Source of the DNA: Escherichia coli
Lineage (GTDB): Bacteria; Pseudomonadota; Gammaproteobacteria; Enterobacterales; Enterobacteriaceae
Assembly (NCBI RefSeq): GCF_003334255.1
Contig: NZ_QOWU01000240.1
Length of the DNA: 438 nucleotides
Direction: 5' to 3' (one strand)
The notes beneath the pieces were generated by a model. That model ran no database searches. It saw nothing but the letters and a program-made list of their open reading frames with translations, and was not told the DNA's origin. Below, in pieces: positions 125 through 438 of this stretch (its first letter is position 1; every line of letters begins with the position of its first letter). The position numbers and the translations under genes are program-made.

Positions 125-438
125 ATGACACAGACTGAATCAGCGATTCTGGCGCATGCCCGGCGGTGTGCGCCTGCGGAGTCGTGCGGCTTCGTGATAA
201 GCACGCCGGAGGGGGAGCGGTATATCCCTTGTGTGAATATTTCCGCAGAGCCGGAGGCGTATTTTCGTATCGCACCGGAAGACTGGCTGCGGGCAGAGAT
301 GCAGGGGGAGATTGTGGCACTGGTCCACAGTCATCCCGGTGGTCTGCCCTGGCTGAGCGAGGCTGACCGGCGGCTGCAGATAAAAAGCGCACTGCCCTGG
401 TGGCTGGTCAGCCGGGGTGACATTCACAAATTCCGCTG
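125..438 (+). CDS. K: Tail (tip) assembly protein K (gpK-like), N-terminal JAB/MPN+ domain; 3'-partial, continues downstream of the window
   Basis: ATG at 125..127, frame 2, with no stop through the window end (104 full codons plus 2 nt). Translation: MTQTESAILAHARRCAPAESCGFVISTPEGERYIPCVNISAEPEAYFRIAPEDWLRAEMQGEIVALVHSHPGGLPWLSEADRRLQIKSALPWWLVSRGDIHKFR. I recognise this as a close homolog of phage lambda gpK from its N-terminus (MTQTESAILAHARRCAP…) and from the HSHPGGLPWLSEADRRL JAMM motif. Not in the ORF track because there is no stop codon in the window. Confidence 0.93.
   Translation, partial: MTQTESAILAHARRCAPAESCGFVISTPEGERYIPCVNISAEPEAYFRIAPEDWLRAEMQGEIVALVHSHPGGLPWLSEADRRLQIKSALPWWLVSRGDIHKFR
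179..190 (+). other. JAMM/MPN+ N-terminal catalytic motif E-x-C-G (Glu19-Ser-Cys-Gly22 of K)
   Basis: Codons gag(179..181) tcg tgc ggc(188..190) encode ESCG, followed by F-V. This matches the conserved E-x-x-G-[LF] element that supplies the catalytic Glu in MPN+/JAB domains. The assignment of the Glu is by motif position, not by structure. Confidence 0.6.
326..367 (+). other. JAMM zinc-binding motif H-x-H-x7-S-x2-D (His68, His70, Ser78, Asp81 of K)
   Basis: cac(326..328) agt cat(332..334) … agc(356..358) gag gct gac(365..367) encodes HSHPGGLPWLSEAD. Spacing is exactly H-x-H-x7-S-x2-D, the canonical JAMM/MPN+ metalloisopeptidase signature. Confidence 0.85.

Follow-up and report, generated by a model that had tools for sequence, protein, structure and literature searches.

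Catalytic motifs and allelic divergence of the tail-tip assembly gene K in a lambda-like prophage of Escherichia coli

An L-K junction from a lambda-like prophage

Tail gene clusters in lambdoid phages and in T1-like ones encode a protein I, whose N-terminal ubiquitin-like (Ubl) beta-grasp domain terminates with glycine, beside a protein K combining a JAB and an NlpC/P60 domain, and Iyer, Burroughs and Aravind predicted in 2006 that the JAB domain of K frees the Ubl domain from protein I (PMC1779556). According to the summary of a 2025 conference report from the Davidson laboratory, gpK cleaves the gpI Ubl domain once gpI is in the tip complex (PMC12908700). Cryo-electron microscopy and mass spectrometry have found the tip to contain residues 135-223 of gpI, and gpK is not in virions (PMC10721106; PMC12617516). 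The gpK-gpI system is now under experimental study. Here we analyzed a stretch of 438 nucleotides from Escherichia coli (contig NZ_QOWU01000240.1 of assembly GCF_003334255.1), hereafter the window, which carries the beginning of a K gene. An earlier reading made from the letters of the window only had proposed a lambdoid variant of K in which scattered substitutions left the catalytic motifs unchanged.

K codons 1 to 104, together with the two bases that open codon 105 (437-438), occupy plus-strand bases 125-438, as established by translation, Pfam and PHROG matches and a structural model. Bases 125-436 encode 104 residues uninterrupted by stops (MTQTES...IHKFR; complete translation MTQTESAILAHARRCAPAESCGFVISTPEGERYIPCVNISAEPEAYFRIAPEDWLRAEMQGEIVALVHSHPGGLPWLSEADRRLQIKSALPWWLVSRGDIHKFR), and the open reading frame (ORF) continues past the window end; the coordinates 125-438 and the 104-residue translation proposed earlier were both correct. 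We consider, with a probability of about 0.93, that the window belongs to the tail-tip genes of a lambda-like prophage integrated in an E. coli chromosome and holds the 37 last codons of L and the 104 first codons of K. A megablast search of complete E. coli genomes returned a single 100% match, at 352264-352701 of NZ_CP075665.1 (E. coli STEC2018-553, human stool). The tail module of this strain has the order tape measure, M-like protein, porin gene, L, K, I and J. K is an intact ORF annotated there as a 247-amino-acid 'C40 family peptidase' (WP_062895705.1), and is followed by a 'tail assembly protein' (I) and an 'attachment tail tip protein J'. That K follows L and precedes I and J is thus shown by the L stop and K start within the window and by the order L-K-I-J in STEC2018-553.

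Pfam analysis of the full K protein identified PF14464 (Prok-JAB) at residues 3-105 (E 9.7e-16) and PF00877 (NLPC_P60) at residues 111-224 (E 2.1e-13), so that the window holds essentially the entire N-terminal JAMM/MPN+ domain while the NlpC/P60 domain lies beyond it. The PHROG family phrog_30, 'minor tail protein', matched K at E 4.5e-160. Translation and an alignment of 100 homologues placed E19-S20-C21-G22, within AESCGF, at bases 179-190, with GAG for E19, a serine codon read as AGT or TCG, and TGC and GGC for C21 and G22; the glutamate E19 serves as general base in the JAMM motif. Bases 326-367 (HSHPGGLPWLSEAD) encode the part of this motif that binds zinc, H68-S-H70-x7-S78-x2-D81. By sequence, only one solved structure was found, 2kks, a JAB protein from structural genomics (E 2e-5), whose E, HSHP and S..D elements aligned with those of K. 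An AlphaFold2 model of K, built on the 100-sequence alignment, reached a predicted local distance difference test score of 97.3 and a predicted template modelling score of 0.91. When its N-terminal half was compared with the Protein Data Bank (PDB) using Foldseek, Pyrococcus furiosus JAMM1 (PfJAMM1) was retrieved in its free form and in complex with the ubiquitin-like SAMP2 (5ld9, 5lda), with a root-mean-square deviation of 2.5-2.6 Å over 107-109 columns, together with AMSH, AMSH-LP, CSN5, BRCC36 and 2kks, at a probability of 1.00. The C-terminal half retrieved MepS/Spr, LytE and clostridial Acd autolysins. The nearest NCBIfam model was the desampylase model NF041370 (HvJAMM1 equivalog; E 3e-7), and membership in that family was rejected on a score of 30.4 bits against a cut-off of 130 bits, K sharing a related fold and chemistry but belonging to another family. 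As judged from the residues and the model, the N-terminal part of K appears to be a complete and apparently active minimal JAMM/MPN+ zinc metalloprotease domain.

As comparator for lambda we used the 247-amino-acid K of independently sequenced lambda records rather than the 199-amino-acid RefSeq entry, which is discussed below. Over residues 1-104 the two proteins differ by 11 substitutions (V25I, F34I, G41A, M49I, S50A, Q56R, V86I, Q87K, D89A, C96S and T99D), corresponding to 89.4% identity in amino acids and, with 42 differences in 312 bases, 86.5% in nucleotides, and the full-length proteins of 247 amino acids are about 90% identical. The variant positions named in the sequence-only reading were right for residues 25, 34, 41, 49, 50, 86 and 87; residue 88 is in fact unchanged, and the alignment added positions 56, 89, 96 and 99. 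Most of the substitutions are conservative, as had been suggested, the exceptions being D89A and T99D. Both motifs, E19-S-C21-G22 and H68-S-H70-(7)-S78-E-A-D81, are identical to those of lambda, so that the expectation of intact motifs combined with less than complete identity to lambda K was borne out. The codon positions of the 42 base differences (29 third, 9 first and 4 second) are the signature of a coding sequence in the K frame.

Could the window derive from lambda itself or a laboratory derivative, the substitutions then being errors of the first reading? Gene order and protein architecture are those of lambda, and the first 24 residues of K are the same. However, near-identity was not found, and the alignments refute this origin, which we regard as excluded. 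Compared with NC_001416, the 438 bases show 84.5% identity over aligned bases with 67 mismatches and two indels, namely five extra bases in the L-K spacer and one extra G at window base 259 (86.3% identity for the K part); the corrected lambda K differs by the 11 amino acids listed above, and the sole 100% match is the STEC2018-553 chromosome. The earlier proposal of a related prophage homolog distinct from lambda therefore agrees with both the 84.5% identity and the perfect match within the tail module of the STEC2018-553 prophage.

The L and K genes are separated by a 10-nucleotide spacer (115-124, ATCCTGTTTT), which the alignment with lambda showed to be 5 nucleotides longer than its lambda counterpart (ATCCC). 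Upstream of ATG 125, no stop interrupts the K frame as far as base 2 (frame +2, 2-124), so that it runs across the 3' end of L, and it contains an in-frame ATG at 65-67, which was considered as a start and rejected. Since the spacer indel is not a multiple of 3, the upstream frame and this ATG are not conserved in lambda, leaving ATG 125 as the start. The same 5-nucleotide indel breaks in lambda the upstream frame of a 334-amino-acid ORF starting at a TTG of the STEC2018-553 locus (L001, position 11864), which was likewise rejected. No obvious Shine-Dalgarno sequence was seen in the spacer, making it plausible that K translation is coupled to L termination. A promoter scan of the window found none, and an Rfam scan (E<=1) gave two chance-level matches only, far under the gathering scores.

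Two minus-strand ORFs (123-392, 89 amino acids; 140-427, 95 amino acids) appear in the program-made ORF list and might be taken for a true gene. We give this next to no credence: a G+C content of 61% in this region makes antisense ORFs frequent by chance, the differences from lambda follow the plus-strand K frame (29 of 42 at its third codon position), the minus strand is without annotation in any record seen, and the Pfam and PHROG matches belong to the plus-strand product.

The missing base in the lambda reference and the length of K

In NC_001416/J02459, K is annotated at 14276-14875 as a protein of 199 amino acids (NP_040598.1) starting MSPEDW, that is at residue 49 of the window protein. 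Residues 1-56 of NP_040598.1 align with window residues 49-104, including HSHPGG...SEAD, and the entry is without residues 1-48, hence without positions 25, 34 and 41 and the catalytic glutamate of the E-x-C-G motif. The residue numbering that the sequence-only reading assigned to a lambda reference protein consequently fits the corrected 247-amino-acid K but not the RefSeq entry.

The alignment with the lambda records explains this discrepancy. The G at window base 259 stands opposite a one-nucleotide gap in J02459/NC_001416, after lambda position 14266 (about 1267 in the lambda locus L002). In the reference, the ATG at 14133 is followed by MTQTESAILAHARRCAPAESCGFVVSTPEGERYFPCVNISGEPEA, and the frame then diverges and never joins K; RefSeq K is 199 amino acids long from Met49 because the missing G throws the 45 N-terminal codons out of frame. 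Three other lambda records, OM418626 (lambda imm434), PV340536 and LC730321, carry the G and read GAGGCGTATTTCC, which yields a continuous K of 247 amino acids, annotated as such in PV340536 (XSB40720.1). The 862-bp version of this span, that of the reference, occurs in four phage-collection records only (J02459, NC_001416, OR474059 and OR974322), versus an 863-bp span in nineteen listed records of lambda or lambda hybrids. From these sequence comparisons, the lambda reference most probably contains an error of one base, or else a mutation of the sequenced stock. A search for documentation of the G missing at lambda 14266 found nothing relevant in the literature available. Suppliers' notes presumably list it as '14266 insG'.

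A G+C-rich hairpin at 240-257 (TTTCCGCAGAGCCGGAGG) lies directly before the base missing from the lambda reference; speculatively, a sequencing error made in 1982 might have arisen from gel compression there. This hairpin, inside the K coding sequence, is terminator-like (1 found vs 0.3 ± 0.6 expected), and being within chance expectation it is treated as non-functional.

The opposite view is that the true K is the 199-amino-acid form starting at codon 49, codons 1-48 being either untranslated leader sequence or a small ORF of their own, and the E-x-C-G motif having no relevance. It can cite the annotation of K at 14276-14875 in both NC_001416 and OM418626, and the ribosome-binding site that the latter record marks at 14260-14264. 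However, codon 49 of the window (269-271) is ATC, for isoleucine, where lambda has the ATG used as the RefSeq start of the 199-residue K, so that the short form cannot arise from this allele; in the corresponding column isoleucine is found in 70 of the 100 homologues and methionine in 10. The G is present in three independently deposited lambda records, where the long frame is then open from ATG 14133, and the annotation in PV340536 is that of the 247-amino-acid form. Residues 1-48 moreover hold the conserved JAB-domain elements P17, E19, C21, G22, N38 and F47, the region is under purifying selection with a third-position bias, and the full-length model shows one confident domain starting at residue 3. 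A 199-residue K is hardly credible in view of these observations, and the window sequence independently supports the long, 247-amino-acid form. Comparisons involving lambda gpK should use that form, as the base missing from the canonical record truncates the protein and removes its catalytic glutamate.

Purifying selection and conservation in K

Comparison of codons 1-104 with lambda by the Nei-Gojobori method gave a nonsynonymous rate (dN) of 0.059 and a synonymous rate (dS) of 0.53, that is a dN/dS of 0.11, and the ratio for the full K gene was 0.097. For 50 distinct alleles, drawn from lambda and 80 IMG/VR loci, pairwise dN/dS had a median of 0.13 over 909 pairs, only those with a dS above 0.05 being counted. 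The purifying selection invoked in the sequence-only reading is real, but the constraint is spread over the whole domain and is not particular to the active site. Nor are unchanged motifs informative alone at this divergence, since the chance that 11 random substitutions in 104 positions spare the motif is 0.57 when five residues are counted and 0.45 when seven are.

A deeper view of the family was obtained from an exhaustive search, which retrieved 2830 cluster representatives at E<=1e-3, and from the alignment of 100 full-length homologues with 32-90% identity. A word-indexed protein search gave mostly truncated or frameshifted fragments of at most 181 amino acids, and was used for close-allele variation only. 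G22, N38, H68, H70, D81 and D120 are invariant in the 100 homologues, and E19 (99), S69 (96), C21 (94) and S78 (Ser in 94, Thr in 5) are nearly so. The NlpC/P60 residues C121, H187 and H199 are each found in 99 of 100, and ESCG is kept in all 53 closer proteins. The predicted active site is supported by this deep conservation in the family, not by the comparison with lambda.

Among the closest alleles, the codons of the H68...D81 motif vary synonymously only, save for one copy. In this IMG/VR locus (allele A16V I25V S26R H70R), an arginine replaces the zinc ligand His70, and this K has presumably been inactivated as its prophage decays.

All 11 positions substituted relative to lambda are variable in the family, with a column entropy of at least 1.44 bits. 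A preference of the substitutions for variable columns did not reach significance (mean entropy 2.90 vs 2.43 bits, Mann-Whitney p 0.15). Codon 96 (410-412) is AGC, for serine, in the window, and mostly a cysteine codon in close relatives: Ser96 occurs in 7 of the 80 closest IMG/VR loci, against Cys in 73 of 80 and in lambda, and in none of 44 closer proteins. Because serine is the commonest residue of this column in the deep family (32/100), C96S is probably neutral. Taken together, the 11 substitutions very probably represent ordinary allelic divergence under purifying selection, at positions that vary in the family.

A more elaborate explanation is that K and I form a co-adapted protease-substrate pair, the specificity of the JAMM domain having changed to match its own gpI, whose Ubl domain looks more diverged from lambda than K does when the translations are compared by eye. 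If this were true, the K and I alleles of lambdoid phages would not be interchangeable, which would limit mosaic recombination at the tail tip. We regard such co-adaptation as very unlikely. All 11 changed positions are family-variable, and the trend towards variable columns is not significant (p 0.15); ordinary allelic divergence is the preferred explanation. The window provides a natural-variation data point for a gpI-processing JAMM domain, with the catalytic residues fixed and 11 surface-type positions that vary.

Prophage context, predicted function and comparison with known systems

Of 5426 complete E. coli genomes, 2297 contained matches of some kind to the window, at a median of two and at most 15 places in each. 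The top matches in the phage collection were 98.4% identical and corresponded to Stx1a- and Stx2a-converting phages (Stx, Shiga toxin), PPompW prophages and Escherichia phage PhiR5_1; in their annotations L and K are named tail tip assembly proteins. No lambda record was among the phage-collection matches listed, all of which had at least 95% identity. This K allele is already known: RefSeq contains an annotated entry for it (WP_062895705.1), and E. coli carries it very commonly; being a common, already annotated prophage gene, it has little discovery value.

Upstream of K, bases 1-114 of the plus strand encode the 3' end of L, that is residues 196-232 of a 232-amino-acid gpL homologue followed by a TAA stop (112-114), as read from the translation and from the identical record. 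The translation of these last 37 codons is PTTDIRKDRCSKCMRGCELRRNVGNFGGFLSINKLSQ followed by the stop, and the product ends ...DRCSKCMRGCELRRNVGNFGGFLSINKLSQ. The full protein, annotated in the identical record as 'phage minor tail protein L' of 232 amino acids, matched TIGR01600 (phage_tail_L) with 365 bits for a cut-off of 70.75. The L part is 78.9% identical to lambda at the nucleotide level, with a dN/dS of 0.11 over the 37 codons. It includes Cys205 (28-30), Cys208 (37-39) and Cys212 (49-51); two of these, Cys205 and Cys212, are among the four [4Fe-4S] ligands modelled in the lambda gpL structure (PMC10721106).

In STEC2018-553, a 1164-bp gene annotated 'porin OmpC' stands between the M-like gene and L (L001 10056-11219; NZ_CP075665.1 350319-351482). 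A porin at this site was absent from all 50,697 phage records, in which M adjoins L; P7 nmpC and JL22 ompD, the closest porins among phages, share about 73% identity over 30% of the query. Complete E. coli genomes have the whole M-porin-L stretch in 93 of 5426 cases, and the porin gene looks like a moron at an unusual site.

Downstream of K, the Prokaryotic Genome Annotation Pipeline (PGAP) starts I at GTG 12865 (L001 12865-13446, 193 amino acids), without the first strand region of the Ubl domain, and PV340536 too annotates a short I in lambda. A longer I ORF of 226 amino acids runs from the ATG at L001 12766 to 13446, overlapping the end of K by 103 nucleotides as in lambda. It matches the N-terminus of the 223-amino-acid lambda gpI (...ARICLHGDLQRFGRRI...), carries ...IVPRLAGAGKGG followed by a Gly/Ala-rich linker, and matches tail assembly PHROGs.

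By homology with lambda gpK, this K would act as a non-structural assembly factor. The gpI protein, product of the next gene, would join the tip complex first, and the JAMM domain of K, working as a 'deubiquitinase-like' endopeptidase, would then cut the N-terminal Ubl domain off gpI. Zn-dependent cleavage of gpI by this particular K is what homology and the literature would predict.

Several points weigh against a K copy that is both complete and in use as described. The window displays the N-terminal domain only, and the remainder of K was taken from the 100%-identical public record. Cleavage of gpI comes from a conference summary, the function of the present allele being predicted by analogy. 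Finally, the portal gene of the STEC2018-553 prophage (L001 858-3280) is annotated as a frameshifted pseudogene, so that the prophage may be defective and this K copy out of use. Pushed further, the last point would make K a decaying remnant of a cryptic prophage, intact only through recency and devoid of present function, a view that also fits the several copies present in many E. coli genomes (median 2, up to 15 places) and the related copy with H70R in its catalytic motif. However, a fault in the assembly could account for the portal frameshift, the STEC2018-553 locus has intact K, L, I and J genes, dN/dS is about 0.1 in every comparison, and near-identical K alleles are carried by isolated plaque-forming phages, PhiR5_1 (98.4%) and BP-4795 (97.3%). 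A decaying remnant is thus unlikely, though it keeps some weight, and we favor an intact tail-tip gene maintained by purifying selection.

The closest described system is lambda gpK (247 amino acids, e.g. XSB40720.1 in PV340536), which has the same L-K-I-J position, the same length and the same JAB and NlpC/P60 domains. All the JAMM and NlpC/P60 catalytic residues are identical, and the K-I overlap is 103 nucleotides in both; lambda gpK differs by Met49 instead of Ile and Cys96 instead of Ser, with a dS of 0.53. Closer in sequence are the K genes of Stx2_14040, the PPompW phages, PhiR5_1 and BP-4795, with 97-98.4% nucleotide identity across the window and few point differences. The K proteins of Stx-converting and lambdoid prophages are annotated alike, as tail assembly protein or C40 family peptidase, but Cys96 is found in most of these alleles and Trp32 in many, unlike in the K of the window. 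At a greater distance, PfJAMM1, the HvJAMM1 desampylase and 2kks have the fold and the E...HxH-x7-S-x2-D motif in common with K, at an identity of only 20-25%. The kind of substrate would be common too, as K, by analogy with the JAMM proteases, is expected to act on a beta-grasp Ubl ending in Gly-Gly, and the Ubl domain of the cognate I terminates in this way (...AGAGKGG). Unlike the minimal JAMM proteases, K is fused to an NlpC/P60 domain, and the conference summary describes gpK as an endopeptidase whose Ubl substrate is fused in cis to a structural domain of gpI rather than joined in an isopeptide conjugate (PMC12908700).

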